Shown in pieces: positions 1,237 to 23,102 of a stretch of 53,159 nucleotides of DNA. This DNA is from a virus. Its lineage: Duplodnaviria; Heunggongvirae; Uroviricota; Caudoviricetes. A program made the position numbers and the translations under genes. Below the pieces are notes generated by a model. The model had not been told where the DNA came from. It ran no database searches and saw nothing but the letters and a program-made list of their open reading frames with translations. The stretch lies in IMG/VR virus record IMGVR_UViG_2711768002_000013; one strand, given 5' to 3'. Numbering within the stretch: position 1 is the stretch's first letter; each line of letters starts with the position of its first letter.

Positions 1237-1237
1237 A

Positions 1238-6008: not shown

Positions 6009-6229
6009 CACCATGACTCCGCCTTTACAGGTAAACCATCACGACCGAGGAAGACTTTAATCATGCGGTCAGTAATGCATGTTTTTGTGGTCAGGTTACG
6101 AATATATAGTTTTCGCTTTTTAATATTGTTTGCCGAGGCAATATATGTCCGGCCTTCATGAAGAACATAATCGCCAGGAGTCACACACTGACGTGGTATT
6201 TCATCAGTTCCGAAGTGATGTGCAATCAT
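6008..6229 (-). CDS. kilR: KilR, FtsZ-inhibiting killing protein
   Basis: 73 aa from internal Met [38 protein letters not shown]; matches the KilR sequence and length I recall. Confidence 0.75.
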
Positions 6230-6670
6230 AATTATCTCCATTTTTACAAATGAACTTTGTTGATGCGGTGCCTGGTGCCTCCAGGTGACTGCAACCAGTT
6301 AACAATTACAGTCGGCTTTCCCACCCAAACCAATAAGGACTAACATGACTTTTAACTGTGCCACGTGCGCTTAGCCGCATTCACCGCATCACAAAATTCA
6401 CTTTAAAAAGGGCGGACATCAGCCGAACTTCAAGAAAAAAACTGATGCCGCCAGGACTACACACAGCAATGTCGTTATTTACAACCGGAGGCGCACTCCC
6501 ACCATTTAAATTTAACAGACAAGACCGACTCTTTATGGATATCGGAAATGCGCCTTCGTGTTGTGCCCGGTTTTATTTCACCACCTCCGGGCTTCGGTGG
6601 TCTCGGCTATACCCCTACAGCGAGAGCTTGTGTTAACATTTCAATACCCTTACAGTTGAGAGTTATTGAT

Positions 6671-7159
6671 ATGTTGGATGTATTTACTCCATTGTTGAAA
6701 CTTTTTGCTAACGAGCCACTCGAAATACTTATGTATACGATTATCATTTTTGGTCTCACTCTCTGGCTGATACCGAAAGAGTTTACTGTCGCATTCAATG
6801 CTTATACTGAAATACCTTGGCTCTTTCAGATTATCGTTTTTGCCTTTTCTTTCGTGGTCGCCATTTCCTTCTCAAGATTGCGAGCACATATTCAAAAGCA
6901 TTATTCATTACTACCAGAGCAACGAGTATTGCTTCGTTTATCTGAGAAAGAAATCGCTGTATTTAAAGATTTCCTTAAAACAGGAAATCTTATTATCACT
7001 TCTCCTTGCCGTAACCCGGTTATGAAAAAATTAGAACGGAAGGGCATCATTCAACATCAGAGTGATAGCGCAAACTGTTCTTATTATCTCGTCACCGAAA
7101 AATACTCCCATTTTATGAAGTTATTCTGGAACAGCAGGAGTAGACGTTTTAATCGTTAG
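6671..7159 (+). CDS. sieB: Superinfection exclusion protein B
   Basis: 162 aa from MLDVFTPLLKLFANEPLE with hydrophobic segments; GAGAG Shine-Dalgarno upstream of ATG 6671; the listed 203-aa ORF is an upstream extension. Confidence 0.75.
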   Translation: MLDVFTPLLKLFANEPLEILMYTIIIFGLTLWLIPKEFTVAFNAYTEIPWLFQIIVFAFSFVVAISFSRLRAHIQKHYSLLPEQRVLLRLSEKEIAVFKDFLKTGNLIITSPCRNPVMKKLERKGIIQHQSDSANCSYYLVTEKYSHFMKLFWNSRSRRFNR

Positions 7160-7311
7160 CTTACTGTGTGCTTCTCCAACCATCGGCGCGCACCAGTTTC
7201 GGTTTTAAATGTTTTGCTTTTGGTATACGTCATGGCAGTGAACGTTCCATCCTGGTTGGGGAACACGCCGCACACCAGGGATTCGTTGTTGCCGAGGTCG
7301 ATTTTTTGCAT
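7156..7311 (-). CDS. ydaF: YdaF-like small protein (51 aa)
   Basis: Not in the ORF track; manual translation MQKIDLGNNESLVCGVFPNQDGTFTAMTYTKSKTFKTETGARRWLEKHTVS; stop overlaps the 3' end of sieB. Confidence 0.5.
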   Translation of the reverse strand: MQKIDLGNNESLVCGVFPNQDGTFTAMTYTKSKTFKTETGARRWLEKHTVS

Positions 7312-7321
7312 TTTGCGAATC

Positions 7322-7456
7322 TCACATCTTGTTGCTGTGTATAGCGACTTCTGCCTGCCAGAGATCCCAGTCGTTGCTGCGTAAAGCCTGCACAGCCTGG
7401 TTGTAAGTGATACCGCAACAATCCATCAAATACTGAACTACTTCGTAATGCACCAT
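7322..7456 (-). CDS. ydaG: YdaG-like small protein (44 aa)
   Basis: Internal Met of the listed 60-aa ORF gives MVHYEVVQYLMDCCGITYNQAVQALRSNDWDLWQAEVAIHSNKM. Confidence 0.5.
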   Translation of the reverse strand: MVHYEVVQYLMDCCGITYNQAVQALRSNDWDLWQAEVAIHSNKM

Positions 7457-7624
7457 CTTATCTCTCCCCTTAACGCCGGGTGGCGGAACTGAAACCTGCT
7501 GCACTGCAAAATCTGAACCCTGCCGTCATGTTCATACGCCTCGGGCTGGCTACTTAACCCCTGACCACTGCCTGGTAACTCGAAGTATTGCCCTGCGTTC
7601 TGTGGGGCGGGGTGGGTTGGTAGG

Positions 7625-8245: not shown

Positions 8246-8500
8246 ATGAACCAGAAAACACTTGAAGATGTAATCAAAACTGTTCGCGTTTCTGTTGTGG
8301 CCGACGTTTGTGGTGTCAGCCAAAGAGCAATCTACAAATGGATGGATAACGGAAAATTGCCTCGCACAGAATATACCGGCGAAACAAATTACGCTGAAAA
8401 AATCGCTCATGCATCAAACGGATTATTTTCTGCTGATGTAATTTTAACTATTGGCAGAAATAAAACTACTACGAAAAAGCTGATGGGAGTTGATTCATGA
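8246..8500 (+). CDS. ydaS: Cro-like HTH regulator
   Basis: 84 aa from MNQKTLEDVIKTVRVSVVADVCGVSQRAIYKWMDNGKLP (HTH); GAGGG Shine-Dalgarno before ATG 8246; divergent from the repressor gene. Confidence 0.7.
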   Translation: MNQKTLEDVIKTVRVSVVADVCGVSQRAIYKWMDNGKLPRTEYTGETNYAEKIAHASNGLFSADVILTIGRNKTTTKKLMGVDS

Positions 8501-8919
8501 AAATCAAGCATGAGCACATCGAGTCAGTGTTGTTAGCCCTGGCAGCCGAAAAAGGGCAGGCATGGGTAGCCAATGCCATTACTGAAGAATATCTGCGCCA
8601 GGGGGGCGGCGAATTGCCCCTGGTACCAGGCAAGGACTGGAATAATCAGCAGAATATCTATCACCGTTGGTTGAAAGGTGAAACGAAAACGCAAAGAGAA
8701 AAAATTCAGAAGCTGATCCCAGCAATTCTGGCAATCCTTCCGCGCGAGCTGCGTCACCGACTCTGCATCTTCGATACCCTGGAACGCCGTGCATTACTGG
8801 CGGCGCAGGAAGCGTTAAGTACGGCAATTGATGCGCATGATGATGCAGTCCAAGCCGTTTACCGGAAAGCGCATTTCAGCGGCGGCGGGTCTTCCGACGA
8901 TTCTGTCATTGTTCATTAA
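8497..8919 (+). CDS. ydaT: CII-like regulator / toxic protein YdaT
   Basis: 140-aa ORF overlapping the ydaS stop; size and position as Rac YdaT. Confidence 0.65.
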   Translation: MKIKHEHIESVLLALAAEKGQAWVANAITEEYLRQGGGELPLVPGKDWNNQQNIYHRWLKGETKTQREKIQKLIPAILAILPRELRHRLCIFDTLERRALLAAQEALSTAIDAHDDAVQAVYRKAHFSGGGSSDDSVIVH

Positions 8920-8931
8920 GCAAAAGTTTCC

Positions 8932-9789
8932 ATGCTGTTTGTGCTTATTCTAAGCCACCGGGCAGCATCATACGGGGCAATTATGGCCGCATTACCATAC
9001 ATGCAACTGTACATAGCTGATTACCTGGCTGACACCATGCATTTGTCAGCAGAGGAGCATGGTGCGTATTTGTTGCTGATGTTCAATTACTGGCAAACAG
9101 GAAAGCCAATACCTAAAAACAGGCTGGCAAAAATTGCCCGTCTGACTAACGAGCGATGGGCTGATGTTGAACCATCCTTGCAGGAGTTTTTTTGCGATAA
9201 CGGCGAGGAATGGGTGCATCTTCGGATTGAGGAAGATCTGGCATCAGTCAGGGAAAAATTAACCAAAAAATCAGCCGCAGGAAAAGCATCTGTTCAGGCC
9301 AGAAGAAGCAGAAAGGAAGCAGATGTTCAAACAAAACAAGAGAGAAATTTAACAGGTGTTCAAACAGATGTTGAAGTGGTGTTTGAACATGATGTCAACA
9401 CAAAGGCAACTAATAAAGATACAGATAAAGATCTAAAAACAGATCCCCCCCTAAATCCCCCCCGGGGGAATCGAGGTGTCAAAAAGTTTGACCCTCTGGA
9501 TATTGCTTTGCCGAACTGGATTTCTGTCTCGCTTTGGCGTGAGTGGGTTGAATTTCGCCAGGCATTGCGAAAACCGATTCGAACGGAGCAGGGCGCTAAC
9601 GGGGCGATACGGGAGCTGGAAAAATTCCGCCAGCAGGGTTTTTCACCTGAGCAGGTGATTCGACACAGCATCGCCAATGAATACCAGGGCTTGTTCGCGC
9701 CGAAAGGTGTTCGACCTGAGACGTTACTCCGACAGGTTAACACCGTCTCGTTACCGGATAGTGCGATCCCGCCAGGCTTCAGGGGGTAA
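8932..9789 (+). CDS. ydaU: Replication initiation protein (DUF1376 N-terminal domain), YdaU-like
   Basis: 285 aa; N-terminal YIADYLADTMHLSAEEHGAYLLLMFNYW motif region; contains an internal iteron cluster; followed by the dnaC-like gene; start could be the internal Met. Confidence 0.7.
   Translation: MLFVLILSHRAASYGAIMAALPYMQLYIADYLADTMHLSAEEHGAYLLLMFNYWQTGKPIPKNRLAKIARLTNERWADVEPSLQEFFCDNGEEWVHLRIEEDLASVREKLTKKSAAGKASVQARRSRKEADVQTKQERNLTGVQTDVEVVFEHDVNTKATNKDTDKDLKTDPPLNPPRGNRGVKKFDPLDIALPNWISVSLWREWVEFRQALRKPIRTEQGANGAIRELEKFRQQGFSPEQVIRHSIANEYQGLFAPKGVRPETLLRQVNTVSLPDSAIPPGFRG
9320..9401. repeat. Iteron-like repeat cluster, candidate replication origin inside ydaU
   Basis: TGTTCAAACA at 9324..9333 and 9358..9367 (direct) and 9380..9389 (inverted), with degenerate copies GATGTTGAAG and GATGTCAACA, followed by an AT-rich stretch at 9405..9440. 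Confidence 0.5.
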
Positions 9790-9795
9790 CTGACC

Positions 9796-10542
9796 ATGAA
9801 AAATATTGCGACAGGCGACGTTCTTGAACGTATCCGCAGACTGGCCCCGTCACATGTAACCGCGCCATTCAAGACGGTAGCGGAGTGGCGCGAGTGGCAA
9901 CTTTCCGAAGGCCAGAAACGTTGTGAGGAGATCAACCGTCAGAATCGTCAGTTGCGGGTGGAAAAAATTCTGAATCGCTCTGGCATCCAGCCATTGCACC
10001 GCAAATGCTCGTTTTCGAATTACCAGGTGCAGAACGAAGCGCAGCGATACGCGTTGAGTCAGGCGAAATCCATCGCTGATGAACTGATGACCGGGTGTAC
10101 AAATTTTGCGTTCAGCGGAAAACCTGGTACCGGGAAGAACCACTTAGCGGCAGCTATCGGGAATCGCCTGCTGAAAGACGGTCAGACAGTGATTGTGGTT
10201 ACCGTGGCTGATGTTATGAGTGCCCTGCACGCCAGCTATGACGATGGGCAGTCAGGCGAAAAATTTTTGCGGGAACTATGCGAAGTGGATCTGCTGGTTC
10301 TTGATGAAATTGGCATTCAGCGCGAGACGAAAAACGAGCAGGTGGTGCTGCACCAGATTGTTGATCGCCGGACAGCGTCGATGCGCAGCGTGGGGATGCT
10401 GACAAACCTGAACTATGAGGCCATGAAAACATTGCTCGGCGAGCGGATTATGGATCGCATGACCATGAACGGCGGGCGATGGGTGAATTTTAACTGGGAG
10501 AGCTGGCGTCCGAATGTCGTCCAGCCAGGAATTGAGAAGTAA
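9796..10542 (+). CDS. ydaV: DnaC-like helicase loader (AAA+ ATPase)
   Basis: 248 aa; Walker [16 protein letters not shown], Walker [10 protein letters not shown]; directly downstream of the initiator gene. Confidence 0.85.
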
Positions 10543-10564
10543 TTTTTACCGGGAGGAAATTTTT

Positions 10565-11326
10565 ATGGAGACTGTTTTTGACGCACTGAAAGCAATGGGA
10601 AAAGCCACATCCATAGAACTTGCTGCGCGACTTGATATCAGTCGTGAAGAAGTGCTGAACGAACTATGGGAACTGAAAAAAGCTGGTTTCGTTGATAAAA
10701 GCGCGTACACCTGGCGTGTGGCTGATAACAACGTTCAGCAGGAACAGCCAATGCAGGCAGAACTGCCGGAAGAAACCACCACGGCAACTGTAGTGAAAAT
10801 CTCAGAGTGCGATTTAACCGCGACGATTGAACAACGCGGACCACAAACGGCGGATGAACTGGCTACGCTGTTCGGTACAACATCCCGCAAAGTTGCTTCA
10901 ACGCTGGCAATGGCAATCAGCAAAGGACGCCTGATTCGCGTAAACCAGAACAGTAAATTTCGTTACTGCATGCCGGGCGATAATTTACCAGCAGAGCCGA
11001 AAGCTGCATCGGTAGCGGAAACTGATGGTAAAGCCTTTCCTCAGCCAGCCGGTGTTGCGTTACCAGTACAGGAAGCGGCAACACAGGAAGATATTAAAAC
11101 AGAAACTGTGGCGGACATTGTGCAGTCGCTGCCATCGTTTACTGAAACGCAAGCGGATGACCTAGTTTTACCATCGCTGCATATGGCAAACCGCGAACTG
11201 CGTCGGGCGAAAAATCATGTCCAGAAGTGGGAGCGAGTCTGCGCCGCGCTGCGGGAGCTGAACAAGCACCGGGATATTGTCCGACAGATTGTCGATTCCT
11301 CCAGTCGTATTGTGTCGGAAAAGTGA
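10565..11326 (+). CDS. ydaW: YdaW-like protein with N-terminal winged-helix-like segment
   Basis: ATG 10565 preceded by GGGAGGAAA; begins [30 protein letters not shown]. Confidence 0.5.
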
Positions 11327-11341
11327 TTGCCGGAGGCGCTT

Positions 11342-11758
11342 ATGGCAAAAGTTTTTACACAGGAAGAGCGTGAAAAAATTAAGGAGCAGGTTGTTGAGTT
11401 GGTACGCCAGAGTGGGCGCGAGACGTTAAGGCAACTGGAGGCCAAGACAGGTGCGACAAGATATCTGATGAGCATTCTTGCCAGAGAGTTGGTTGCCAGT
11501 GGCGATGTATACAACTCTGGCTATGGGTTATTCCCGTCTGAACAGGCTCGTAAGGATTGGAAAAACGCCCGCAAAAAACTATCCAGGGCAAAGGTGAAAA
11601 AAACGGTTGTGGTTGATCCTGACCTTATCTGGTCATTACCAGACGGAGAAATACGCCGCTATGACAGGCGTCAGAACATAATCTGTCGCGAGTGCCGGAA
11701 GAGTGAAGTTATGAAACGTGTACTGGCATTTTATCAAGGAAATCTTCGGTATTTATAG
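11342..11758 (+). CDS. Hypothetical phage protein
   Basis: ATG 11342 with GGAGG 5 nt upstream; 138 aa; no recognisable motif. Confidence 0.4.
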   Translation: MAKVFTQEEREKIKEQVVELVRQSGRETLRQLEAKTGATRYLMSILARELVASGDVYNSGYGLFPSEQARKDWKNARKKLSRAKVKKTVVVDPDLIWSLPDGEIRRYDRRQNIICRECRKSEVMKRVLAFYQGNLRYL

Positions 11759-11896
11759 ACGTTACTAGATCAAAGAGCATTAGTTCATATGTAAATTGAC
11801 ATTTTTCTGGCACAGGGGAGAGCTAGCGTGGTTGTCCGCTTTGTGCCAATAGCGGACATTGCTGGCTCATGGTATGTTAGTTTAAGGAGGCAGGTT

Positions 11897-12919
11897 ATGC
11901 CCTGTATTTCGCTGTGGTATAATAGTTGCGCAATTGATACAAGGGAGCGTTACATCGTGAAAATTGTTTTCGAGGTTAATGGAAAGAAAGTTCCACTAAA
12001 ATCTTTAAAATACATAAGCAAAAAAGATCAACTCGAAGTAATGAAAAACTGGTTCTTTGAAAACTTTGAAGATCCGGCAAATGCTTGTCCGTATGAAAGT
12101 AGAGAAGGTGGCTATGCTTACATATATGGCGGGCCGTATGATGCGAGCGAAGAACTACAATCCATCTTCGGTCAATATGTTAAATCTGAGTATATTGAGG
12201 AATTAGTAGATGAATTACAAACACAATGTTTTGACTGGTCTGGAAACTCAAATAATATAGATGATTGGTACGATGATGATATCTACGACGCTGTAACGTC
12301 TTCCGGTAATCCGTATTTAAAATTCATTGATAATATCGATAAAATAAAAAAACTTGCAAAAGATAAAACTGAACAACAGCAAAAAAACCACTTGCTTAGT
12401 TTGCTCTACACGAATGTTATTACAGCTTTGGAAACGCTTTATGTTGAGCTATTCATTAATTCTATAGAGAAAGATGATGTCTACATAGCCAATTGTATAG
12501 AAAAAGGTAAGACTGAATTTAAAGTAAGCAAAGATATTGCTGCGTTGCCTTTCAAGGGTGAACCCATCGAGAAAATTAGGGGAGAGCTAATCAGGTCAAT
12601 CAAGGAACACTTGATCAGTGCAAGCTGGCATAGCACTAAAAAGGTAATCGACCGCTATGAAGCTACATTCGATATAAAAGTACAAAAAGACTGTCCGATA
12701 GAAGCTATTGAATTGGCAACCCTCAATCGAAATCACTTAGTGCATCGTGGTGGAAAGGATAAAGAAGGGAACCTCGTAGTGATTACAGACCAGGATCTTG
12801 AAACGCTGATTGAAAATGCATCGAACCTGGCAATTATGCTCTACAACAGTTTAAATGTAGCAACGAATAAAACCACCATTTTGCAACCAGATGACAAACC
12901 GTTCATTCATGAATTTTAA
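11897..12919 (+). CDS. Hypothetical protein of AT-rich cargo cassette (gene 1); weak HEPN-like R-x4-H motif
   Basis: Perfect Shine-Dalgarno AAGGAGG 6 nt before ATG 11897; 340 aa; visibly AT-rich compared with neighbours; C-terminal NRNHLVHRG; in-frame GTG 11957 with AAGGGAG is an alternative start. Confidence 0.6.
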   Translation: MPCISLWYNSCAIDTRERYIVKIVFEVNGKKVPLKSLKYISKKDQLEVMKNWFFENFEDPANACPYESREGGYAYIYGGPYDASEELQSIFGQYVKSEYIEELVDELQTQCFDWSGNSNNIDDWYDDDIYDAVTSSGNPYLKFIDNIDKIKKLAKDKTEQQQKNHLLSLLYTNVITALETLYVELFINSIEKDDVYIANCIEKGKTEFKVSKDIAALPFKGEPIEKIRGELIRSIKEHLISASWHSTKKVIDRYEATFDIKVQKDCPIEAIELATLNRNHLVHRGGKDKEGNLVVITDQDLETLIENASNLAIMLYNSLNVATNKTTILQPDDKPFIHEF

Positions 12920-12934
12920 TAGCGCAGGTCATAC

Positions 12935-13936
12935 ATGGATATTCGCACACGAAAGACAAAATTTTTAGAGTCGTTAGATTCAACTGAAGTGATACGCAAA
13001 GCAGTAAGTCTCGCTATAGATTGCATTATTGATAATCATAATAGTAATGAAGATACCCCCTTAGTTATTACCAGCTATGATGATCTCTGTAGAATCCAGG
13101 TGCTAAATTATGTACAGGAGTTTTGCGAAGCTGCATTCCCTGATATGGATGAATATTACTTTAGTCCTAACATACTTCGCATCAACGGCAAGACTAGTGA
13201 AGAAGCTTGTATTAACTTAATTAAACTCTTAAGAAGTACAAAAGGCATGCTATTCTGGTCCGATGCCCCATCGTGGTTCGCTAGCCTCCCCGACGGATTA
13301 TTCCATGTTGTTAACATTGATCAAAAAATCGTTACTCGCGGCCTTAATAAGAAAAACTCTAAGCCGACAATAATCAATAAAGATTACAGTGTAGATACAC
13401 TACTATCAGAGCTATTTTTGAATGGCGCACACATGGAGCAACCCAACGTACACAACGTTTCTGAGGGAAACATGAAGTTCTATGATGAATGCCATGCTGG
13501 ATTAATCAGACCAATACCCGCTCCAATAGGCGCGTCATACGATGAAGAGATCACAATTAATTCTCCAGATTGGCAAAAGCTCGCGTGTGTAGCTTTACGC
13601 CGCTATCAGTCGAAGGAATGTCATGACGGAATGCAATGGGATACAACCGATCATGGTTGGACTGATGTAATCGCGTATCCATTCGTCGAAGAAATACAAT
13701 CAATGGATAATAGTGGTTATCGACAATGTTTAGTTGGGCTGGTCACAATAAACAATTCAAATGCAAATTCTCCGTACCTATCTACCGTTTGGATACATCC
13801 ATTTTATCGCAGGAGAGGGTTATTAAGTAAGTTATGGCCAAAATTACAAGAGTTATATGGAAGTAACTTCGAAATTGAGCGACCTAATGAAAATATGAAA
13901 GCATTTCTGAAAAGTGCGAAACACGCAGATTACTAA
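12935..13936 (+). CDS. Hypothetical protein of AT-rich cargo cassette (gene 2); possible GNAT-like C-terminus
   Basis: 333-aa ORF 15 nt after gene 1, same strand and base composition; C-terminal VWIHPFYRRRGLLSKLW resembles an acetyltransferase motif A, but weakly. Confidence 0.55.
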   Translation: MDIRTRKTKFLESLDSTEVIRKAVSLAIDCIIDNHNSNEDTPLVITSYDDLCRIQVLNYVQEFCEAAFPDMDEYYFSPNILRINGKTSEEACINLIKLLRSTKGMLFWSDAPSWFASLPDGLFHVVNIDQKIVTRGLNKKNSKPTIINKDYSVDTLLSELFLNGAHMEQPNVHNVSEGNMKFYDECHAGLIRPIPAPIGASYDEEITINSPDWQKLACVALRRYQSKECHDGMQWDTTDHGWTDVIAYPFVEEIQSMDNSGYRQCLVGLVTINNSNANSPYLSTVWIHPFYRRRGLLSKLWPKLQELYGSNFEIERPNENMKAFLKSAKHADY

Positions 13937-14113
13937 TTTATGAATCAGTCTGTGGAGTTAGGGTTGGTGTGAACAAGTAGGGTAAGAGCCTCAACGTGAT
14001 GCTATGCCGACCTGCTCCCTGAGAATTCACACAGAAGGCTGCTAGCAATGTCTGCAGATCGCTCAAAGCGGACTAAAATGTTGGCTTGTTTCTGACTTAG
14101 AGCATTTAAGGAA

Positions 14114-14338
14114 GTGCTGGTGGTGACTGGTTGTTGTGTTCCATTTCTACAGAATAAAATCACAGAAACTATACCCAATAGTTGTATTGAATCACTGACG
14201 AGACAGCCTCATATTTATCAGGACTGGTGTGCGTCTAATACAGGGGGTTGTCGTGCTGGTTCTCAAATGTGCGCTGGCTATTGCGGCTGTAATGGCAATT
14301 TATTGTCTTGCTGTTGTTCTTATGGAGCGGCTTTCTGA
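14114..14338 (+). CDS. Cys-rich small ORF (13 Cys in 74 codons), speculative
   Basis: AAGGAAG immediately upstream of GTG codons at 14114/14120/14123; C-terminal GGCRAGSQMCAGYCGCNGNLLSCCCSYGAAF; may be a chance ORF. Confidence 0.2.
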   Translation: MLVVTGCCVPFLQNKITETIPNSCIESLTRQPHIYQDWCASNTGGCRAGSQMCAGYCGCNGNLLSCCCSYGAAF

Positions 14339-14497
14339 TTGATTACATACTGGCTAGAAAAAAGGTGTTACCTTGGTTTATCTTTGTCCGGCAAGGTGCG
14401 CTCATTAATCTTAAGTAAATTTATTGCTCAAGTATTCAGATTACTTCTTATGGTTGAAGTCTCCTGTCAATGTAGAACCAATATATTTACAAAAATG

Positions 14498-14530
14498 AGA
14501 CCCGTCGGGGATAGCCCTGCCGGGTCTGAC
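14498..14530 (-). terminator. Possible intrinsic terminator downstream of the YeaR-like gene
   Basis: GACCCG..CGGGTC stem with a 16-nt loop; T-run on the minus strand immediately 3' of it. Confidence 0.3.
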
Positions 14531-14556
14531 TGTTAAAGCATTTTTAATATGATCAT

Positions 14557-14895
14557 CTATTTTTTGGTGCTATAGACTTTTTCGCCCGAAAAGTCTGGAG
14601 CGACCCAAAAGTTAATATTAAACTGAGCATCATCGCTTAGTTCAACACGGTGCCAGTATTGTGGTGGGCTTGTTGCAAAAGCGCCAGCATTAATGACTAC
14701 TTTTATCTCCGGTTCAGTAGCATTCTCATCAGTAAAACCATAATATGTTACAGTGCCTTCCATTACGCACAACTGCCCAAAAACACCTGCTGCTGTATTA
14801 TGATGTGTTAATAACGCTGAAGGTACGTTCTCTTTTGTGAAGAACGGAGTTGAGCGTTTGATTACCCAATCTTTAGGAATTCTCTTGTGTGTCAT
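14557..14895 (-). CDS. Small DUF1971 / YeaR-like protein
   Basis: ATG 14895 preceded by GGAGGAGG; 112 aa; RSTPFFTKENVP..YYGFTDENATEPE..YWHRVE..FNINFWVAPD pattern resembles YeaR-family proteins as I recall them. Confidence 0.45.
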   Translation of the reverse strand: MTHKRIPKDWVIKRSTPFFTKENVPSALLTHHNTAAGVFGQLCVMEGTVTYYGFTDENATEPEIKVVINAGAFATSPPQYWHRVELSDDAQFNINFWVAPDFSGEKVYSTKK

Positions 14896-15708
14896 AACCA
14901 CCTCCTCCAAAACATGCATTAAAAATGCATCTTTTGGAGGGTTATGTCAAGCTGTTATGAAACACATAATTGATATGTTGATTAGAGGAGAAGATAGAAT
15001 AAATATGGTTGTTTTTCGTATAACTATTTGTTTTACTTTTAGTTTATGCATTCTGTGTGTTAGGAATAAGTTATTAAAGTTTAATCAAAAAATCTCGATG
15101 TAGTCCACATAGATTACTGTTACTGAACCTTATTGTGTGTATTAGTTGTGTTCTGAAATTTCAGCTTAATTATTTATGATGTATTTTTTAACGATAAATA
15201 TTTTCCCAGGATACCTTTACTGTGTATATAAATAAATTATATACGCATAAATAATGTAAAGGCGTCCTTTTAGATATATCTTATCAAATGTTAATGACTT
15301 GAGTGGGAAATATGATTCCAGCAACTTATCATGTGGCTACTTTATAAAAATAATGCCCATATAAAACAACAAGCGAAAAGGATTACGGATAAAAAAGGAG
15401 CGAGATGTGCGAACTTGTTATTTTCCATGTTTAACCACCTTAAATAATTGATGATGACGGGATGATTGCATCTGTAATGCTTTTATTGAAATGTTATGAT
15501 AAAAAAGAACTTTTGCATAACATTAAAATGTAATTTATCTAATCGTTTTTAATAATAAGTGTCGTATTTCTATCCTTGTACCAGCTATTTGATATGTAGT
15601 GTTTGTTCATGCTATGTGGGGCTTTACACCATAGCCAGTTTATTTATACTTTATTCGTCAGCCTGAACAACTGGCATCTGCTGCGCTGCGCCATCGAGAG
15701 ATTGAGAA

Positions 15709-16308
15709 ATGGCGCATATACAACTGGTCAAACAAACCTCTTCTGGTTTACTTCTCCCGGCGACGCCGGAGAGTTGCGATTTTCTGCATCAAATCAAAAT
15801 AGGTGAGTGGATACACGCAGACTTTAAGCGTGTGCGTAACTACGCATTCCACAAGCGTTTTTTCAAACTCCTGCAACTGGGATTCGATTACTGGACTCCG
15901 GTCGGTGGGGCGATCACGCCTCGCGAACGAGAACTGCTGTCTGGTTTCGTTGATTACCTGTGCGAATCAGTTGGTCGGGAACACACGCCAGCCCTGAGTG
16001 ATGCCGCAGAGCAATACCTTAACACCGTTGCGACTCGTAGAACCCGGGATACGGCGTTGCTAAAGTCGTTTGAGGCTTTCCGCGAGTGGGTAACCATTCA
16101 GGCCGGATTTTACACCGAGCATATTTATCCGGACGGTAGCCGTGGGCGTCGGGCAAAATCCATCGCTTTTGCGAATATGGACGAAGTCGAGTTTCAGCAG
16201 GTTTATAAATCTGTACTGAATGTGCTGTGGAACTGGATTCTGTTCCGTAAATTCTCCTCTCAGGAGGAAGTTGAAAATGTGGCCGCACAACTACTGGAGT
16301 TTGCGTAA
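15709..16308 (+). CDS. Nin-region phage protein (DUF1367-like)
   Basis: 199-aa ORF upstream of the ybcO-like and Q-like genes; preceded by a ~600-bp AT-rich noncoding region. Confidence 0.45.
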   Translation: MAHIQLVKQTSSGLLLPATPESCDFLHQIKIGEWIHADFKRVRNYAFHKRFFKLLQLGFDYWTPVGGAITPRERELLSGFVDYLCESVGREHTPALSDAAEQYLNTVATRRTRDTALLKSFEAFREWVTIQAGFYTEHIYPDGSRGRRAKSIAFANMDEVEFQQVYKSVLNVLWNWILFRKFSSQEEVENVAAQLLEFA

Positions 16309-16598
16309 TGGTGAATTTACGTAAAGCGGCTAAAGGCCAGATGTGCCAGATCAGAATCCCTGGCTACTGCAATCACAATCCCGAAACCTCTGTGCTGGCG
16401 CATTACAGGCTGGCGGGGACGTGCGGAACAGCGACAAAACCACATGATATGCAGGCGGCGATAGCCTGTAGCTCATGCCACGATCTAATCGACGGGCGGG
16501 TAAAAACCAGCGATTACACCAAAGAAGAATTGCGCCTGATGCATGCTGAAGGGGTTTTTCGCACACAAGAAATCTGGAGAAAGAAAGGTCATTTATGA
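16308..16598 (+). CDS. YbcO-like Cys-rich putative nuclease (DUF1364)
   Basis: 96 aa with CQIRIPGYC...CSSCHD cysteine cluster; start overlaps the upstream stop. Confidence 0.55.
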   Translation: MVNLRKAAKGQMCQIRIPGYCNHNPETSVLAHYRLAGTCGTATKPHDMQAAIACSSCHDLIDGRVKTSDYTKEELRLMHAEGVFRTQEIWRKKGHL

Positions 16599-17137
16599 TT
16601 TACCCAACGAATACAGGAAAAAGCGGAGAACACCTTCGCCTCACCACGCTGGAAAGTGTCTGGATTCAGGGAAAACTACGTATGTGGGGGCGCTGGTCGT
16701 ATATTGGCGGTGGCAGGTCAGGGAATATGTTCAATCAGTTGTTGGCATCCAAAAAACTGACGAAAACAGCCATTAATGAAGCCCTGCGCAGAATGAAAAA
16801 AGCGGGAATAGAGAAAGCTGAGCTGGAAGCGTTTTTGCGAGAGATGATCAACGGCAAGCAAAAGAGCTGGCTGGCGCATTGTACTGATGCAGAGGCGTTA
16901 TGTATTGATCGAGTCATAAGTGAGGTGCTGGCAGAGCATCCAGGATTGATTTGCATTCTCCGGCAACGCTATGAAGGGCGGGGGATGACTAAGCGCAAAA
17001 TGGCTGAATTGCTAAATGATGCACACCCAGAGTGGTGTTTTAGCACATGCGAAAAACGGATTGCTAATTGGTTAGCTGTTGCTGAGTATGCCCTATATAT
17101 TCCCATGCGTGAATCATTTGCTGAGAAAATGGCTTGA
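16595..17137 (+). CDS. Putative late-gene antiterminator Q-like protein
   Basis: 180 aa with Cys pairs (HCTDAEALC, WCFSTCEKR); last gene before an intrinsic terminator and the lysis region, as for Q/pR'/tR'. Confidence 0.5.
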   Translation: MIYPTNTGKSGEHLRLTTLESVWIQGKLRMWGRWSYIGGGRSGNMFNQLLASKKLTKTAINEALRRMKKAGIEKAELEAFLREMINGKQKSWLAHCTDAEALCIDRVISEVLAEHPGLICILRQRYEGRGMTKRKMAELLNDAHPEWCFSTCEKRIANWLAVAEYALYIPMRESFAEKMA

Positions 17138-17217
17138 TTTCTTACGTATAAACTGCTTCAATTTTGCTATGCTTCGCAAAGCTGTATCGCGAGGCGGATT
17201 GCAGACATGGACATCGT

Positions 17218-17244
17218 AAAAAAACCGCTTAATGCGGTTTTTTT
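17218..17244 (+). terminator. Intrinsic terminator (tR'-like) downstream of the Q-like gene
   Basis: AAACCGC-TTAAT-GCGGTTT hairpin followed by a T7 run. Confidence 0.6.
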
Positions 17245-17564
17245 ACGTCAGGAAAGCAGGGGAGAATGCTGCTAGTTGGGCAACTGGTCTTTCTGCTCCA
17301 AATTATAACAGAGACCAGTTATAGTTTCGGTGCTGTGTTTTTTTTACAATATTGTGATAACACATTGCTGGCGGGAGTTTTGATATTTCTTGGCAGGGGC
17401 TGATGATGCGTTATCCTGATGTCGTCAACTCATATAAAATGAGATGAGAGATCATTGCAGGGTGGTTTGTAATTCGCTGTTTAGCGGGACAATATGTTGT
17501 CTGATACAAGACACCCGACGCCTCAGATTACTATAATAAAGACGAAGCATCCTTTGTATTGACC

Positions 17565-17590
17565 AACCGCCTGTTTAGGCGGTTCTTTTT
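17565..17590 (+). terminator. Second intrinsic terminator in the Q-to-lysis spacer
   Basis: AACCGCC-TGTTTA-GGCGGTT hairpin followed by CTTTTT. Confidence 0.55.
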
Positions 17591-18122
17591 GGGCTGGTTT
17601 ATTGTATGCCAAATGATTATTAAAAAGGTTGTGTTAATAACAAGATCCGAAATAATATGCCTGCATATTTTTATCTTGCTTATATTCTGCATATTGTGCA
17701 TAGCAGGCTCATCCCTGCAATCAAAACTGTATGATGAGTATTTTTTGTTTTCCTTTTTTCCAGTCATCTGATGATGACCTGCTTCTTTTTAATCCGGATC
17801 GACATCAGTTTTTTAAGATAATTCCTGCGAGTTATATGCATAAATGCCACAAACTCCGCATTTTATGTGGTTGGGAGTTGCCGGGCGCGCAGTGAGTTTG
17901 CTAAGAAAACTCCTGCATGGTGAATCCCCCTGTGCGGTGGGGTGATACCATTAACCTTTTCTGTCGCCGACAGGTATCACGAACATTTTGTTCACCGGGA
18001 GGCACCCGGCACCATGCACTTCAATAGATTCTCTCCACATTATGGATATTCTTTCAGAATATCCCACGCAGACTTTGTGTAAATGTTAACAAATGTGCGT
18101 TTTATTTGATCTGATTCGCTGT

Positions 18123-18152
18123 TTGAGCGTCCAAAACAACGGTATATATAAT
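18123..18152 (+). promoter_or_regulatory. sigma70-type promoter for the lipoprotein cassette
   Basis: -35 TTGAGC (18123..18128), 18-nt spacer, -10 TATAAT (18147..18152); GAGGAAA Shine-Dalgarno before ATG 18182. Confidence 0.5.
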
Positions 18153-18181
18153 CCTTTACTATATGACATATGTGAGGAAAA

Positions 18182-18610
18182 ATGGGTTTTCGTAGCGCAT
18201 CAATTCTTACGTTGATTATTAGTGGGATTATTATCGGGTGCACTGATGCTGTATCGACAAATTATCATGACCGTACATCATATTACTCCGATAAAGCAAT
18301 AGAGACACAGTATGTGAGTTCATCTGAACGTACTTCTGATGTTAGTGAGGATATCCGTCTGTATGCCCATCAAATCAAGAGCGCCATCGAAAAACAGTTC
18401 GGGGATGCGAGTAAGTATTCAGGAAAAGAGTGTACACTGAGAATGCATATGGCCCCGAATGGCCTTCTACTGGAGGTTAAAAGAGAAAGTGGAGACCTCG
18501 ATTTATGTCGTGAAGCGATGAATGCGATAAAGAATGCTGATATACCTGCCCCCCCTTCGCCGGAAGTATATAAAGTATTTCAAAATGGGGTGCTGGATTT
18601 TAAACCCTGA
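18182..18610 (+). CDS. Lipoprotein with TolA C-terminal (domain III)-like domain
   Basis: Signal peptide with lipobox IIGC; C-terminal YAHQIKSAIEKQFGDASKYSGKECTLRMHMAPNGLLLEVKRESGDLDLCREAMNAIKNADIPAPPSPEVYKVFQNGVLDFKP closely resembles the TolA C-terminus as I recall it, including two Cys. Confidence 0.7.
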   Translation: MGFRSASILTLIISGIIIGCTDAVSTNYHDRTSYYSDKAIETQYVSSSERTSDVSEDIRLYAHQIKSAIEKQFGDASKYSGKECTLRMHMAPNGLLLEVKRESGDLDLCREAMNAIKNADIPAPPSPEVYKVFQNGVLDFKP

Positions 18611-18760
18611 TATTTATTGTTTTGTAATAAACGGTTTCGGCTTAGGTTTGTTCTGACACAGCTACGGCACTGAGCTAAATTTAGCGGATAGTCAGCTCTG
18701 AGCCAGTGGCGGACGTAACAACTACTATTGCTGAGATTTTAATGGATTGAGGAGCAAGAA

Positions 18761-19156
18761 GTGGGATTAAAGAAAATCGTTATGTTGACTTTTTGGGTCG
18801 GTTTTGTTGCGGGATGCACACCTTTACACCCTTCAGATTGCCACAAAACTACTGCTACAGGTAGTTGCAGTTCAGGACGCTGGGATGATCAGGATGAATG
18901 GGGGGCGCAAGCGCGGGGAATCAGAGCTGCAATTAATGCCAAACTTGATGAGCCGCATAACTGGAAAGGGAAAAAATGCAGGTTGCATATGGAATTCTCT
19001 CAGGATGGCACGGCGTTAAAAATATCTACCAGTAACGGTGATAAAGCCTATTGCGAAGCGATAAAGTCCGCAGCTCATAAAGCCAAATTTCCGGCCTTCA
19101 ACAATCCGGAAGTCTACAGAGATTTTCAGAAATCTGGCTTTGACATGCGAGGTTAG
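18761..19156 (+). CDS. Paralogous lipoprotein with divergent TolA-domain-III-like C-terminus
   Basis: GTG start after GAGGAG; lipobox VAGC; C-terminal KKCRLHMEFSQDGTALKISTSNGDKAYCEAIKSAAHKAKFPAFNNPEVYRDFQKSGF aligns with the upstream paralogue and TolA. Confidence 0.65.
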   Translation: MGLKKIVMLTFWVGFVAGCTPLHPSDCHKTTATGSCSSGRWDDQDEWGAQARGIRAAINAKLDEPHNWKGKKCRLHMEFSQDGTALKISTSNGDKAYCEAIKSAAHKAKFPAFNNPEVYRDFQKSGFDMRG

Positions 19157-19281
19157 CTCTTCAATTACTATATCTCATTCATAGCAAACTGACAGATTTG
19201 ATGATGTTCTATATACGAAACCTGTGATGTCAAGTCTGAGCTAATACAAATAAACATAATATCAGAGAAATACATTTTATT

Positions 19282-19304
19282 AGCTCGCTACGGCGAGCTT
19301 TTTA
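19282..19304 (+). terminator. Intrinsic terminator closing the lipoprotein cassette
   Basis: AGCTCGC-TACG-GCGAGCT hairpin followed by TTTTTA. Confidence 0.6.
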
Positions 19305-19407
19305 TATTGCATCGTCTCCAGCATATATATCAATTAAGGCTCTGATTGATGTGTCTGAAAGCCTACACATAATAACTATGCCATCCGTTCCGTGCGGAGG
19401 TGAGGCT

Positions 19408-19623
19408 ATGAAATCCATGGACAAAATTTCAACAGGCATTGCCTACGGCACCTCCGCAGGCAGTGCTGGCTACTGGTTTTTACAGTTGCTCGATAGAGTA
19501 ACTCCGTCACAGTGGGCTGCAATCGGTGTGCTGGGTAGTCTGGTATTTGGCCTGCTGACGTACCTGACAAACCTTTATTTCAAGATTAAAGAAGATAAGC
19601 GCAAGGCTGCGAGAGGTGAATAA
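19408..19623 (+). CDS. Pinholin, phage 21 S-type, with dual start
   Basis: [29 protein letters not shown]...; Met1 and Met4 starts (19408 and 19417); GGAGGTGAGG Shine-Dalgarno; followed by a SAR endolysin. Confidence 0.85.
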
Positions 19624-20120
19624 TGCCTCCATCATTACGAAAAGTCGTTGCTGCTGCTATTGGTGGCGGAGCAATTGCTATAGCATCAGTGTTAATCACT
19701 GGCCCAAGTGGTAACGATGGTCTGGAAGGTGTCAGCTACATACCATACAAAGATATTGTTGGTGTATGGACTGTATGTCACGGGCATACAGGAAAAGACA
19801 TCATGCTCGGTAAAACGTATACCAAAGCAGAATGCAAAACACTCTTGAATAAAGACCTTGCCACTGTCGCCAGACAAATTAACCCGTACATCAAAGTCGA
19901 TATACCGGAAACAACGCGCGGCGCTCTTTACTCATTCGTTTACAACGTGGGTGCTGGCAATTTCAGAACATCGACGCTTCTTCGCAAAATAAACCAGGGC
20001 GATATCAAAGGCGCATGTGATCAGCTACGTCGCTGGACATATGCTGGCGGTAAGCAATGGAAAGGTCTCATGACTCGTCGTGAGATTGAGCGTGAAATCT
20101 GTTTGTGGGGTCAGCAATGA
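19623..20120 (+). CDS. SAR endolysin (T4-lysozyme-like muramidase), R21-like
   Basis: 165 aa; N-terminal Gly/Ala-rich SAR segment [18 protein letters not shown]; catalytic E..D..T region [17 protein letters not shown]; TAATG overlap with the holin stop. Confidence 0.85.
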
Positions 20121-20581
20121 ACAGAGTAACCGCGATTATCTCCGCTCTGGTTATCTGCATCATCGTCTGCCTGTCATGGGCTGTTAATCATTACCGTGAT
20201 AACGCCATTACCTACAAAGCCCAGCGCGACAAAAATGCCAGAGAACTGAAGCTGGCGAACGCGGCAATTACTGACATGCAGATGCGTCAGCGTGATGTTG
20301 CTGCGCTCGATGCAAAATACACGAAGGAGTTAGCTGATGCGAAAGCTGAAAATGATGCTCTGCGTGATGATGTTGCCGCTGGTCGTCGTCGGTTGCACAT
20401 CAAAGCAGTCTGTCAGTCAGTGCGTGAAGCCACCACCGCCTCCGGCGTGGATAATGCAGCCTCCCCCCGACTGGCAGACACCGCTGAACGGGATTATTTC
20501 ACCCTCCGGGAACGACTGGTAATGATGCAGGCCCAACTTGAAGGTGCTCAGCAATACATAACCGAGCAGTGTTTAAAGTAA
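20117..20581 (+). CDS. Rz-like inner-membrane spanin
   Basis: ATG 20117 overlaps the endolysin stop (ATGA); N-terminal TM segment then coiled coil; Rz1 embedded in the +1 frame. Confidence 0.8.
20337..20522 (+). CDS. Rz1-like outer-membrane lipoprotein spanin
   Basis: Embedded [27 protein letters not shown] with lipobox and proline-rich tail ([15 protein letters not shown]). Confidence 0.75.
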
Positions 20582-20718
20582 AATCTTAACTACAATATGA
20601 TTCATTTTGATGATTGTTTCATAAGGAACAGTGAAGTAAGATCTAAGAGGAGTTAAATTTTATACAGTATAATCATAATATTGCAGCAAGGTGGTTATAA
20701 TTGAAAGAATATTTAGAT

Positions 20719-22176
20719 ATGAATACATCTCATGTAAGAGTTGTTACTCATATGTGTGGGTTCCTGGTTTGGCTCTATAGTCTTTCAATGTTGCCACCAA
20801 TGGTTGTAGCATTGTTTTATAAAGAAAAAAGCCTGTTCGTTTTCTTTATAACTTTCGTTATATTTTTTTGCATTGGTGGCGGAGCGTGGTATACAACTAA
20901 GAAATCTGGCATTCAATTACGTACCCGTGATGGGTTTATTATAATTGTAATGTTTTGGATTTTGTTTTCTGTTATTAGTGCATTCCCTTTATGGATTGAC
21001 TCAGAACTTAATTTAACGTTCATTGATGCTCTGTTTGAAGGGGTTTCTGGAATAACAACAACAGGAGCAACTGTAATTGATGATGTTAGTTCATTACCTC
21101 GGGCATATTTGTACTATCGGTCACAGTTAAATTTTATAGGTGGTTTAGGAGTTATTGTTCTGGCGGTTGCAGTATTGCCATTATTGGGTATTGGTGGTGC
21201 AAAGCTTTATCAGTCAGAAATGCCGGGGCCATTTAAGGATGACAAACTCACTCCCCGCCTGGCCGATACGTCACGGACACTGTGGATAACTTATTCTTTA
21301 TTAGGTATTGCTTGTATTGTCTGTTATAGACTTGCAGGAATGCCTTTGTTTGATGCTATTTGTCACGGGATTTCCACAGTTTCGCTTGGTGGTTTCTCAA
21401 CTCATAGCGAGAGTATCGGATATTTTAATAACTATTTGGTTGAGCTGGTGGCTGGTTCTTTTTCCCTGCTATCGGCTTTCAACTTCACTCTTTGGTATAT
21501 TGTTATTAGCAGAAAAACGATAAAACCTTTAATCAGAGATATTGAACTTCGTTTCTTTCTGTTAATAGCCTTAGGGGTGATCATTGTTACCTCTTTCCAG
21601 GTCTGGCATATAGGTATGTATGACTTGCATGGAAGTTTTATTCATTCGTTTTTTCTTGCCAGCTCCATGCTCACTGATAATGGTTTAGCTACGCAGGATT
21701 ATGCAAACTGGCCCACGCACACGATAGTGTTTTTGCTGTTGTCAAGTTTCTTTGGGGGATGTATAGGTTCAACCTGTGGTGGAATTAAGTCACTTCGATT
21801 TCTTATACTTTTCAAACAAAGCAAACACGAGATAAATCAGCTTTCTCATCCCAGAGCGTTGTTGAGTGTAAATGTAGGAGGGAAGATAGTTACAGATCGT
21901 GTAATGAGGTCTGTATGGAGTTTCTTTTTTCTTTATACTCTCTTCACGGTGTTTTTTATACTGGTGTTAAATGGTATGGGATATGATTTTCTTACATCAT
22001 TTGCAACAGTGGCTGCATGTATTAATAATATGGGATTAGGTTTTGGGGCTACTGCATCGTCATTCGGAGTGCTTAATGACATTGCAAAATATTTAATGTG
22101 CATAGCTATGATTCTTGGTCGCCTTGAAATTTATCCTGTTATTATATTGTTTTCAGGTTTTTTTTGGCGCTCCTAA
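20719..22176 (+). CDS. trkG: TrkH/TrkG-family potassium uptake protein
   Basis: 485 aa from ATG 20719; multi-pass membrane protein; AT-rich; position after the lysis genes as trkG in Rac. Confidence 0.85.
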   Translation: MNTSHVRVVTHMCGFLVWLYSLSMLPPMVVALFYKEKSLFVFFITFVIFFCIGGGAWYTTKKSGIQLRTRDGFIIIVMFWILFSVISAFPLWIDSELNLTFIDALFEGVSGITTTGATVIDDVSSLPRAYLYYRSQLNFIGGLGVIVLAVAVLPLLGIGGAKLYQSEMPGPFKDDKLTPRLADTSRTLWITYSLLGIACIVCYRLAGMPLFDAICHGISTVSLGGFSTHSESIGYFNNYLVELVAGSFSLLSAFNFTLWYIVISRKTIKPLIRDIELRFFLLIALGVIIVTSFQVWHIGMYDLHGSFIHSFFLASSMLTDNGLATQDYANWPTHTIVFLLLSSFFGGCIGSTCGGIKSLRFLILFKQSKHEINQLSHPRALLSVNVGGKIVTDRVMRSVWSFFFLYTLFTVFFILVLNGMGYDFLTSFATVAACINNMGLGFGATASSFGVLNDIAKYLMCIAMILGRLEIYPVIILFSGFFWRS

Positions 22177-22313
22177 TATATGGCTGATTTATAATTGTGA
22201 GTTTAATATTATGTTGACTCACTCATTGATCCAATACCTAACTTTACCAGCAACACCTCCGCCCCCAGTAGCACTGGCTGCTGGGGTGCGTTTTATTCAT
22301 AAAGCAAGGCTGT

Positions 22314-23102
22314 ATGAGCGAGAAATTAAAGATAGTCTATCGCCCATTACAAGAATTGTCACCGTATGCGCACAACGCCAGGACGCACAGTACTGAGCAG
22401 GTGGCACAACTGGTAGAAAGTATTAAGCAATTCGGCTGGACTAATCCGGTGCTGATTGACGAAAAGGGCGAAATTATTGCGGGTCACGGTCGTGTTATGG
22501 CGGCTGAAATGCTCAAAATGGATTCTGTTCCGGTCATTGTTCTGTCTGGCCTGACGGATGAGCAGAAAAAGGCGTACCGCCTGGCAGATAATCGCCTGCC
22601 GATGAATGCTGGCTGGGATGAAGATCTGTTGCGGATGGAGCTGTCGGACCTAATCAATGCTGATTTTGATGTCTCCCTGACAGGCTTCATCCCGGCAGAA
22701 ATTGATGAACTGTTGACGGATGTTTTGCCCGGTACAGGAAATGAGGAGGAGCCGTATACGACGAAAATTGATACGCCTGTTTATGAGCCGTCAGGCGGTA
22801 AACCGGATATCAGTGAACTGTACGACGATACGAAAACTCAGGAGCTGATCAGCCGGATACGTTCGGCGTCCCTTGATCCTGATATTGAGAAATTCCTCCT
22901 GTGTGCAGCAGAACGTCACACGGTGTTTAATTTCAGCAGAATTGCGGACTATTACGCTCATGCCCCCGCTGAAATTCAGTGCCTTTTCGAGGAGTCGGCG
23001 CTGGTGATCATTGATTATCAGCAGGCTATTGAAAATGGATTTGTCCGAATGACGCAGCGCATGGTGGAGATCATGCATGGCGGGGAGGAGGAATATGCGT
23101 GA
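22314..23102 (+). CDS. ParB-like nuclease domain protein
   Basis: 262 aa; N-terminal ParB/Srx-like motif region (..PVLIDEKGEIIAGHGRVMAA..); located just upstream of the terminase genes. Confidence 0.6.
   Translation: MSEKLKIVYRPLQELSPYAHNARTHSTEQVAQLVESIKQFGWTNPVLIDEKGEIIAGHGRVMAAEMLKMDSVPVIVLSGLTDEQKKAYRLADNRLPMNAGWDEDLLRMELSDLINADFDVSLTGFIPAEIDELLTDVLPGTGNEEEPYTTKIDTPVYEPSGGKPDISELYDDTKTQELISRIRSASLDPDIEKFLLCAAERHTVFNFSRIADYYAHAPAEIQCLFEESALVIIDYQQAIENGFVRMTQRMVEIMHGGEEEYA

Follow-up and report, generated by a model that had tools for sequence, protein, structure and literature searches.

What does a prophage gain from two lipoproteins that end in a domain of TolA, a protein that its host already makes? 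The question is raised by a two-gene cassette in a stretch of viral DNA of 53,159 nt (IMG/VR record IMGVR_UViG_2711768002_000013; this whole stretch is referred to as the window, and all coordinates are those of the window). The window is the Rac prophage, in a more complete form than the copy that resides in E. coli K-12. The cassette lies on its + strand between a Q-like antiterminator gene and the lysis genes, a placement that had been proposed from the sequence alone (the original prediction) and that agrees with the annotation of an identical genome by the Prokaryotic Genome Annotation Pipeline (PGAP). ORF translation, Pfam and AlphaFold2 (AF2) identify the product of ORF1 (18182-18610) as a 142-residue lipoprotein mimicking TolA domain III (TolAIII); ORF2 (18761-19156, with a GTG start) encodes a divergent TolAIII-like lipoprotein of 131 residues. 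That both are lipoproteins carrying TolA domain III is fully supported. The function proposed for them here, which is given an even chance of being right, is that of decoys of the Tol translocon, which would make the lysogen tolerant of group A colicins and of phages that depend on Tol.

Two lipoproteins carrying TolA domain III

ORF1 begins with an ATG placed 4 nt beyond the Shine-Dalgarno sequence GAGGA (18174-18178, + strand) and ORF2 with a GTG 6 nt beyond AGGAG (18750-18754, + strand); an in-frame stop lies just 5' of this GTG, and the same codon is ATG in a plasmid homologue. The N-termini, MGFRSASILTLIISGIIIGC in ORF1 and MGLKKIVMLTFWVGFVAGC in ORF2, each present a K/R n-region, a hydrophobic core and a lipobox. 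Signal peptide and lipobox take up residues 1-20 of ORF1 (18182-18241; IIGC, Cys20) and residues 1-19 of ORF2 (VAGC, Cys19), and both are lipoprotein signals by PROSITE PS51257-type criteria (a K/R n-region, a hydrophobic core, a lipobox of the form [LVI..][ASTVI..][GAS]C and a Cys at position 15-35). Across the two alignments, of 22 and 43 homologues, the lipobox Cys never varies. The original prediction had spoken of two paralogous lipoproteins with these lipoboxes, and this holds: both ORFs are where they were said to be and are related to each other at 29% identity (BLASTP, E 2e-18). The residue following the lipobox Cys (position +2) is Thr in both proteins, and Asp is found there in none of the homologues examined. 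By the E. coli +2 rule this predicts sorting to the outer membrane, so that both lipoproteins are predicted to be tethered to its inner face.

Beyond the lipobox, ORF1 continues with a disordered, Ser/Thr/Tyr-rich linker (residues 21-54) and ends in TolA domain III (residues 55-142, 18344-18607), and in ORF2 a conserved, Cys-containing N-motif (residues 20-49, 18818-18907) precedes the TolAIII-like domain (residues 50-131). The Pfam family for the TolA C-terminus, PF06519 (gathering threshold 25 bits), is matched by ORF1 with 82.6 bits (E 2e-23) and by ORF2 with 54.6 bits (E 1e-14). Among PDB sequences searched with phmmer, residues 55-142 of ORF1 align without a gap to residues 334-421 of E. 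coli TolA and are identical at 52 of the 88 positions (59%; E 5e-28); ORF2 is identical to TolA at 27 of 88 (E 5e-9). The Cys pair of TolA (C363/C388) is kept in both proteins and is invariant across the homologue alignments, and it is predicted that the pair could form a disulfide, as in TolA. The likeness of the C-terminal ~85 residues to TolA domain III, Cys pair included, had been part of the original prediction, and the string of identities given there matches the gap-free alignment.

The fold tells the same story. AF2 models the TolAIII domain with block-mean pLDDT values of ~85-97 (85-97 over residues 50-142 of ORF1), leaves residues 1-49 of ORF1 disordered, and places a small hairpin of lower confidence ahead of the domain in ORF2. 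Secondary-structure elements follow each other in the order H-H-E-E-H-H-E in both models, which is the order of the TolAIII α/β fold. The best Foldseek match of the ORF1 model is 2x9a_B (template-modelling score (TM) 0.96, root-mean-square deviation (rmsd) 0.6 Å) and that of the ORF2 model is 3qdp (TM 0.92, rmsd 1.1 Å). Both are TolAIII crystal structures, and TonB C-terminal domains rank far below TolAIII structures for either model. A profile and structure comparison with TolA domain III had been named as the way to check the assignment; PF06519 and Foldseek both return it. The two proteins also match PHROG 5772, a family without annotation, over their full length (E 1.6e-62 and 6.7e-65).

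Neither protein is a bona fide TolA. Such proteins are about 350-430 residues long, and full-length TolA models are matched by ORF1 and ORF2 over their last ~80-100 positions only (NF007065: 107.8 and 53.7 bits, respectively, against a cut-off of 213; TIGR02794: 75.6 bits for ORF1, above the cut-off of 59.45, and 47.2 bits for ORF2, below it). The transmembrane anchor (domain I), through which TolA is coupled to TolQ-TolR, is absent from both, and a cleavable lipoprotein signal peptide is found instead. Domain II, the long Ala/Lys-rich helix, is absent as well, its place being taken by a linker of 30-34 residues that is predicted to be disordered or to form a small hairpin. With both domains missing, the two proteins have no means of being energised. 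The genes, moreover, sit in the Rac prophage between Q and holin, and not in the tolQRA-tolB-pal operon. The missing anchor and helix, the NF007065 scores and the prophage location together rule out a TolA proper.

A different way of dismissing these genes is already on record. In identical genomes, PGAP labels ORF1 (as 18350-18610) a 'tolA pseudogene, missing N-terminus', a call that arises because ORF1 exceeds the TIGR02794 cut-off, and it starts ORF2 at an internal ATG (18782), which cuts off the charged n-region of the signal peptide. That the genes are non-functional remnants of a captured tolA is hardly credible, even though a protein one-third as long as TolA does clear that cut-off. 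Both ORFs are intact, with their Shine-Dalgarno sequences; signal peptides and lipoboxes are kept among variants of 65-91% identity, and 771 genomes share the cassette at 100% identity. The ratio of non-synonymous to synonymous divergence (dN/dS, by the method of Nei and Gojobori) between ORF1 and a 66%-identical variant is 0.36 overall, 0.24 in the TolAIII domain and 0.59 in the linker. For ORF2, compared with homologues from plasmids, Citrobacter and Enterobacter, it is 0.08-0.12 overall, 0.06-0.07 in the domain and 0.02-0.13 in the N-motif. Purifying selection acts on both genes, and dN/dS together with the conserved signal peptides leads to rejection of the pseudogene reading. The consequence for annotation is that PGAP mislabels ORF1 and gives ORF2 too short a signal peptide.

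Ligand-binding surfaces and relatives

Two ligand-binding surfaces have been mapped on TolA. The ColA translocation domain binds to 375-LLDIKP-380 by β-addition (PMC3365938). The N1 domain of the filamentous-phage protein g3p, ColN and the N-terminus of TolB share strand β3 (A415-K420) and the first helix; their binding is likewise by backbone β-addition, which requires backbone hydrogen bonds at D418 and K420 (PMC4339652). ColN binds TolA with an affinity of ~1 µM, TolB binds it with ~40 µM, and β3 mutants of TolA that lose TolB binding have a leaky tol phenotype (PMC4339652). At the position of the ColA box, ORF1 has LLEVKR, and its β3 strand reads GVLDFKP where TolA has APLDFKP, so that LDFKP is identical. 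Its domain is identical to that of E. coli TolA at 52 of 86 positions, against 49 of 86 for the best of ~150 representatives of the family described below. ORF1 thus looks like a faithful mimic of the host's hub with its ligand surfaces almost intact.

ORF2 has ALKIST in place of the ColA box and SGFDMRG in place of β3, and is a diverged paralogue that probably has a different or wider range of ligands. Its N-motif, C-x-PLHPS-x-CHKTTATGSCSSGRWDDQDEWG, holds an extra Cys pair, is conserved across genera and is predicted to form a small β-hairpin. (The motif was also considered as a TolB box of the kind that colicins carry, the core of which is DG[ST]GWSSE, with essential Asp, Ser/Thr, Trp and Glu (PMC2821528). 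This was rejected: SSGRWDDQDEWG aligns only the Trp and shows no conservation where the essential Asp and Glu should be.)

ORF1 and ORF2 have many relatives. Searched with a profile, 1.84 billion cluster representatives yielded 578 matches; among the best 150 of these, 95 are no longer than 175 residues, and a signal peptide with lipobox is present in at least 55 of the 95. Most short members end in a strand of the form FKNAxLDFK(P/L), and short TolAIII lipoproteins make up more than 50 distinct clusters at 50% identity. The named members come from Klebsiella, Enterobacter, Serratia, Hafnia and Dryocola, and carry automatic names only.

Much of this family travels on plasmids. A tblastn search with ORF1 finds a TolAIII-like ORF on ~1300 of them, and the ORF2 type is present on ~600 plasmids of E. 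coli and Shigella. In I-complex plasmids (IncK/Z, IncB/O, IncI-gamma) an ORF2-type gene belongs to the backbone, 68 bp 3' of the relaxase gene, whose strand it shares, and ahead of trbC; on pO157 its neighbours are the hok/psiA leading region on one side and toxB on the other. The filamentous phages Ff and If1, the latter an I-pilus phage, use TolAIII as co-receptor (PDB 1TOL, 2X9A).

Small bacteriocin plasmids hold the most revealing relatives. Klebsiella ColRNAI plasmids that encode a cloacin-like tRNase bacteriocin with its immunity and lysis proteins also encode a 123-residue TolAIII lipoprotein (…LLLTAC… near its start, FKNAPLDFRP at its end), the gene of which overlaps by 4 nt a gene for a 121-residue secreted protein consisting of a TonB C-terminal domain only (NZ_CP092719.1, 6949-7682); the sole LexA box of the plasmid is at the bacteriocin promoter. 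An Enterobacter plasmid for a pore-forming colicin encodes a TolAIII lipoprotein of 140 residues (NZ_CP053695.1, 990-1412). That a bacteriocin plasmid should carry neighbouring copies of the tips of both machines for colicin import is difficult to account for other than as interference with import. A Klebsiella cloacin-like plasmid with 'TolA and TolB family proteins' has been mentioned in passing (PMC10269471). Klebsiella IncFIB/FII plasmids, for their part, have a gene for a 144-residue TolAIII-domain protein directly after a gene for a thioredoxin-fold (DsbA/TraF-like) protein (NZ_CP070426.1, 5229-6258).

The cassette itself is widespread in E. coli and moves. Exact copies are present in 771 of 5426 complete E. 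coli genomes (~14%), isolates from chicken, mouse and humans among them. In the phage collection the single match is the cultured phage mEp460_ev081, which shares window positions 17894-19624, starting near the 5' end of the small RNA element STnc100, and has a different Q and a different lysozyme on either side. ORF1, ORF2, the terminator and one and the same holin allele form an unbroken set in all of 80 IMG/VR prophage contigs, whereas Q, lysozyme, Rz and trkG differ between contigs; about half of these contigs combine the cassette with different Q and lysis genes. (The 80 contigs hold only identical E. coli copies, and provide statistics of context, not sequence diversity.) Another lambdoid prophage has a 66%-identical ORF1-type gene, without ORF2, in the same slot between Q and holin; this gene adjoins nanS-p, which separates it from the holin gene about 3 kb away. 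The cassette thus moves as a module among lambdoid prophages, and is best explained as a 'moron'-like accessory unit, carried here by a lambdoid prophage of the Rac type.

The laboratory strain has lost it. K-12 MG1655 aligns to window positions 1-7622, 8491-11014, 20137-22567 and 34125-35884; it is without most of the structural genes of the window and without 11015-20136, which comprises the nin region, Q, STnc100, the cassette, holin, lysozyme and the 5' part of Rz. This gap implies that a 9-kb deletion removed Q, cassette, holin and lysozyme from the Rac copy of K-12.

Decoy, lysis factor or envelope lipoprotein

As decoys, ORF1 and ORF2 would have to be made in lysogens and would work from the outer membrane. 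Anchored in its inner leaflet, the lipoproteins would display TolAIII on a flexible linker of ~30 residues and place it just below the porins, where colicin translocation domains and g3p arrive. TolAIII would there play the part of the periplasmic hub that is bound, through β-strand addition, by group A colicins (ColA, ColN and others), by the g3p of Ff and If1, and by TolB, and the copies would compete with the real TolA for ligand. Devoid of domains I and II, they would transmit no proton-motive force; bound ligand would be trapped in a dead-end complex, and the lysogen would become tolerant to Tol-dependent bacteriocins and phages. The obvious targets of the homologues on conjugative plasmids would be the pilus-specific filamentous phages Ff and If1, and those of the copies on prophages and Col plasmids would likely be the group A colicins of competitors. 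The gap between the affinities of invaders (~1 µM) and of TolB (~40 µM) implies that protection would be possible at levels of decoy that hardly disturb Tol-Pal. An artificial periplasmic TolAIII reportedly renders E. coli colicin-tolerant, and leaky (work ascribed to Levengood-Freyermuth, Click and Webster, J Bacteriol 1993).

The original prediction had offered decoy or exclusion, or else modulation of Tol-Pal, as possible functions. That half of it is partly supported, and comparative evidence strengthens it: ORF1 keeps the binding surfaces for ColA and for g3p, ColN and TolB without keeping the domains that couple TolA to TolQR; homologues are carried by conjugative plasmids whose pili serve TolA-dependent filamentous phages as receptors; and others are carried by small bacteriocin plasmids, once in tandem with the secreted TonB C-terminal domain.

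Several observations weigh against the decoy proposal. A TolAIII copy should also bind TolB, which could be costly. The placement of the cassette in the late operon, always with one holin allele, fits a lysis-related role as well. ORF2 is divergent at both mapped ligand surfaces, and its type exists as a stable, single-copy chromosomal gene in a non-phage neighbourhood in Enterobacter kobei and Citrobacter amalonaticus, which suits a housekeeping role in the envelope as well as it suits defence; divergence and chromosomal occurrence together suggest that ORF2 may not share the job of ORF1. The ORF2-type gene of pO157 resides on a plasmid that is non-conjugative. The promoter-like site ahead of ORF1 is statistically undistinctive. 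A search of PADLOC-DB 2.0 gave no match to any model at E ≤ 1, and full-text searches of the literature yielded no study of these proteins beyond the passing mention in PMC10269471.

An alternative, unlikely on balance, is that the proteins serve the lytic cycle as modulators of Tol-Pal. TolAIII copies made from the Q-dependent late transcript would bind the N-terminus of TolB, block the coupling of TolA to TolB and loosen the outer membrane, and the resulting blebbing, vesicles and leakage would aid lysis or the release of phage and cargo. The genes do lie directly 5' of those for holin, lysozyme and spanins, and the invariable link to one holin allele across the 80 prophage contigs, where Q, lysozyme and Rz vary, favours such a role, as do the identity of the TolB-binding strand LDFKP in ORF1 and the leakiness of TolA β3 mutants devoid of TolB binding (PMC4339652). 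On the other hand, the cassette is equipped with its own promoter-like site and terminator, the prophage already encodes complete spanins, and the family is also found on plasmids and chromosomes without lysis genes. Nor is the proximity to holin general, since nanS-p and ~3 kb intervene in the other prophage with an ORF1-type gene, and the TolA-TolB affinity is weak (~40 µM; PMC4339652).

It is also rather improbable that these are ordinary envelope lipoproteins, with a role linked to peptidoglycan or to Pal/TolB, for instance, that ride on mobile elements as passengers, their TolAIII fold being a generic module for β-addition. Such a reading might apply to ORF2 in particular. The single-copy ORF2-type gene in a conserved non-phage neighbourhood of E. 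kobei and C. amalonaticus, the very strong purifying selection on this type, extending to a Cys-rich N-motif that is unrelated to TolA, and the diversity of the family (the more than 50 clusters noted above) all point that way. Against it, ORF1 is nearest to the host's own TolAIII and has kept the ligand strands, and the family is strongly enriched on plasmids and prophages, including the bacteriocin plasmids that pair it with a protein made of the TonB C-terminal domain only. The cassette occupies an accessory-gene slot of the prophage, which in Stx phages houses stx, and the ORF2 type occurs beside toxB on pO157 and on Shigella plasmids, so that a surface lipoprotein for host interaction or virulence, like Bor or Lom of lambda, comes to mind. 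This is very improbable: profile searches show no similarity to adhesin or serum-resistance families, the domain is a periplasmic protein-binding module, and the exact cassette occurs in ~14% of complete E. coli genomes, among them isolates from chicken, mouse and humans.

Comparison with known systems helps to place the decoy proposal. ORF1 and ORF2 share fold and Pfam family with TolA domain III (1TOL, 1S62, 3QDP/3QDR, 2X9A), and ORF1, at 59% identity over 88 residues, retains the Cys pair, the LDFKP of β3 and most of the ColA box. TolA is anchored in and driven from the inner membrane, whereas the two prophage-borne proteins are predicted to hang from the outer membrane by their lipid. The principle proposed for them, that the uncoupled tip of a transducer titrates ligands, is that of periplasmic TolAIII and TonB C-terminal fragments made in the laboratory; those constructs are artificial and soluble, whereas ORF1 and ORF2 are natural, predicted to be lipid-anchored, under selection, and distributed on prophages and plasmids. 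Cor (of phages φ80, N15 and HK022), Llp (of T5) and TraT (of F) are likewise small outer-membrane lipoproteins of mobile elements that block the entry of competitors. Cor and Llp plug the receptor FhuA (Llp-FhuA is described in bioRxiv 10.64898/2026.03.26.714494); ORF1 and ORF2, which have no relationship to these proteins in sequence or fold, would instead imitate a periplasmic co-receptor. They can thus be thought of as exclusion lipoproteins of mobile elements that would mimic such a co-receptor. Colicin immunity proteins, finally, also provide plasmid-borne protection from colicins and co-reside with TolAIII lipoproteins on the Klebsiella and Enterobacter bacteriocin plasmids. Their sequences are unrelated, and each neutralises one cognate toxic domain, whereas a TolAIII decoy would act broadly, at import.

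The decoy proposal can be extended, tentatively and with rather less than an even chance of being right, to the family: short TolAIII lipoproteins, sometimes together with secreted TonB C-terminal proteins, may constitute a large, unrecognised class of translocon decoys on prophages and on conjugative and bacteriocin plasmids. If so, the class would give broad tolerance, at the level of import, to Tol- and Ton-dependent bacteriocins and phages. It would be the natural counterpart of the dominant-negative TolAIII of the laboratory and might explain why resistance to multiple colicins is so widespread among wild enterobacteria. For the cassette itself, decoy function would mean that hosts are protected by an imitated periplasmic hub and not by the masking of receptors or the neutralisation of toxins, which would add a new layer of resistance. 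Protection would be broad, extending at once to numerous group A colicins and to every filamentous phage that depends on Tol, and it would be horizontally mobile and invisible in K-12, the Rac prophage of which has deleted the cassette. It would bear on therapeutic uses of colicins and phages, on hosts for phage display and on the frequent colicin 'tolerance' of natural isolates that has long been noted, and would offer a handle on how TolAIII discriminates between TolB and parasitic ligands.

Transcription signals and neighbouring genes

A σ70 promoter-like site, TTGAGC-18-TATAAT, is located ~30 nt 5' of ORF1 (18123-18152, + strand). The original prediction called it near-consensus, and the site is real, with 10 of 12 matches, but it is not statistically exceptional: 11 sites of such quality are found, against 7.3 ± 2.9 in shuffled sequence. 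Since equally good sites are not rarer than in shuffles, a promoter here is plausible and unproven. The terminator that had been claimed for the cassette is convincing. It is an intrinsic terminator on the + strand, with a 7-bp stem (AGCUCGC/GCGAGCU) and a 4-nt loop (hairpin 19282-19299) followed by a U-run to 19309; its folding energy is -13 kcal/mol (z -4.2), and none of 200 shuffles is as stable. A search for a hairpin terminator between ORF1 and ORF2 found none, so the two genes are probably co-transcribed. LexA boxes, which would link the cassette to SOS or colicin induction, were sought nearby, and there are none.

From Q to the spanins, the neighbouring genes and the STnc100 element are all on the + strand. 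Upstream lies the gene of the Q-like antiterminator (16595-17137; DUF1133 family, by PGAP), and the STnc100 element (17885-18071; RF02076, 86.6 bits against a gathering score of 47) is directly 5' of the cassette's promoter-like site. STnc100 is a prophage small RNA related to PasD (bioRxiv 10.64898/2026.05.13.724894). Downstream follow genes for an essD-type holin (19409-19624, by PGAP), lysozyme (19623-20120) and the spanins Rz (20105-20581) and Rz1 (20337-20522). After the lysis genes comes trkG (20701-22176), as it does in the Rac prophage of K-12; its GC content is markedly low (0.32-0.43), which marks it as a second accessory insertion in the late region.

Between Q and STnc100 two further elements can be discerned: a hairpin of the form A-run/CCGC…GCGG/T-run directly after the Q stop codon (17219-17246), and an AAGACA-18-TATAAT site with a hairpin and T-run no more than 30 nt beyond it (17508-17584). 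Both may provide late-promoter and terminator functions for Q. Towards the right-hand end of the window, two perfect LexA-box-like CTGT-N8-ACAG sites lie 12 nt apart (50514-50529 and 50542-50557); with one mismatch allowed, this pattern is over-represented, occurring 31 times in the window against 15.7 expected.

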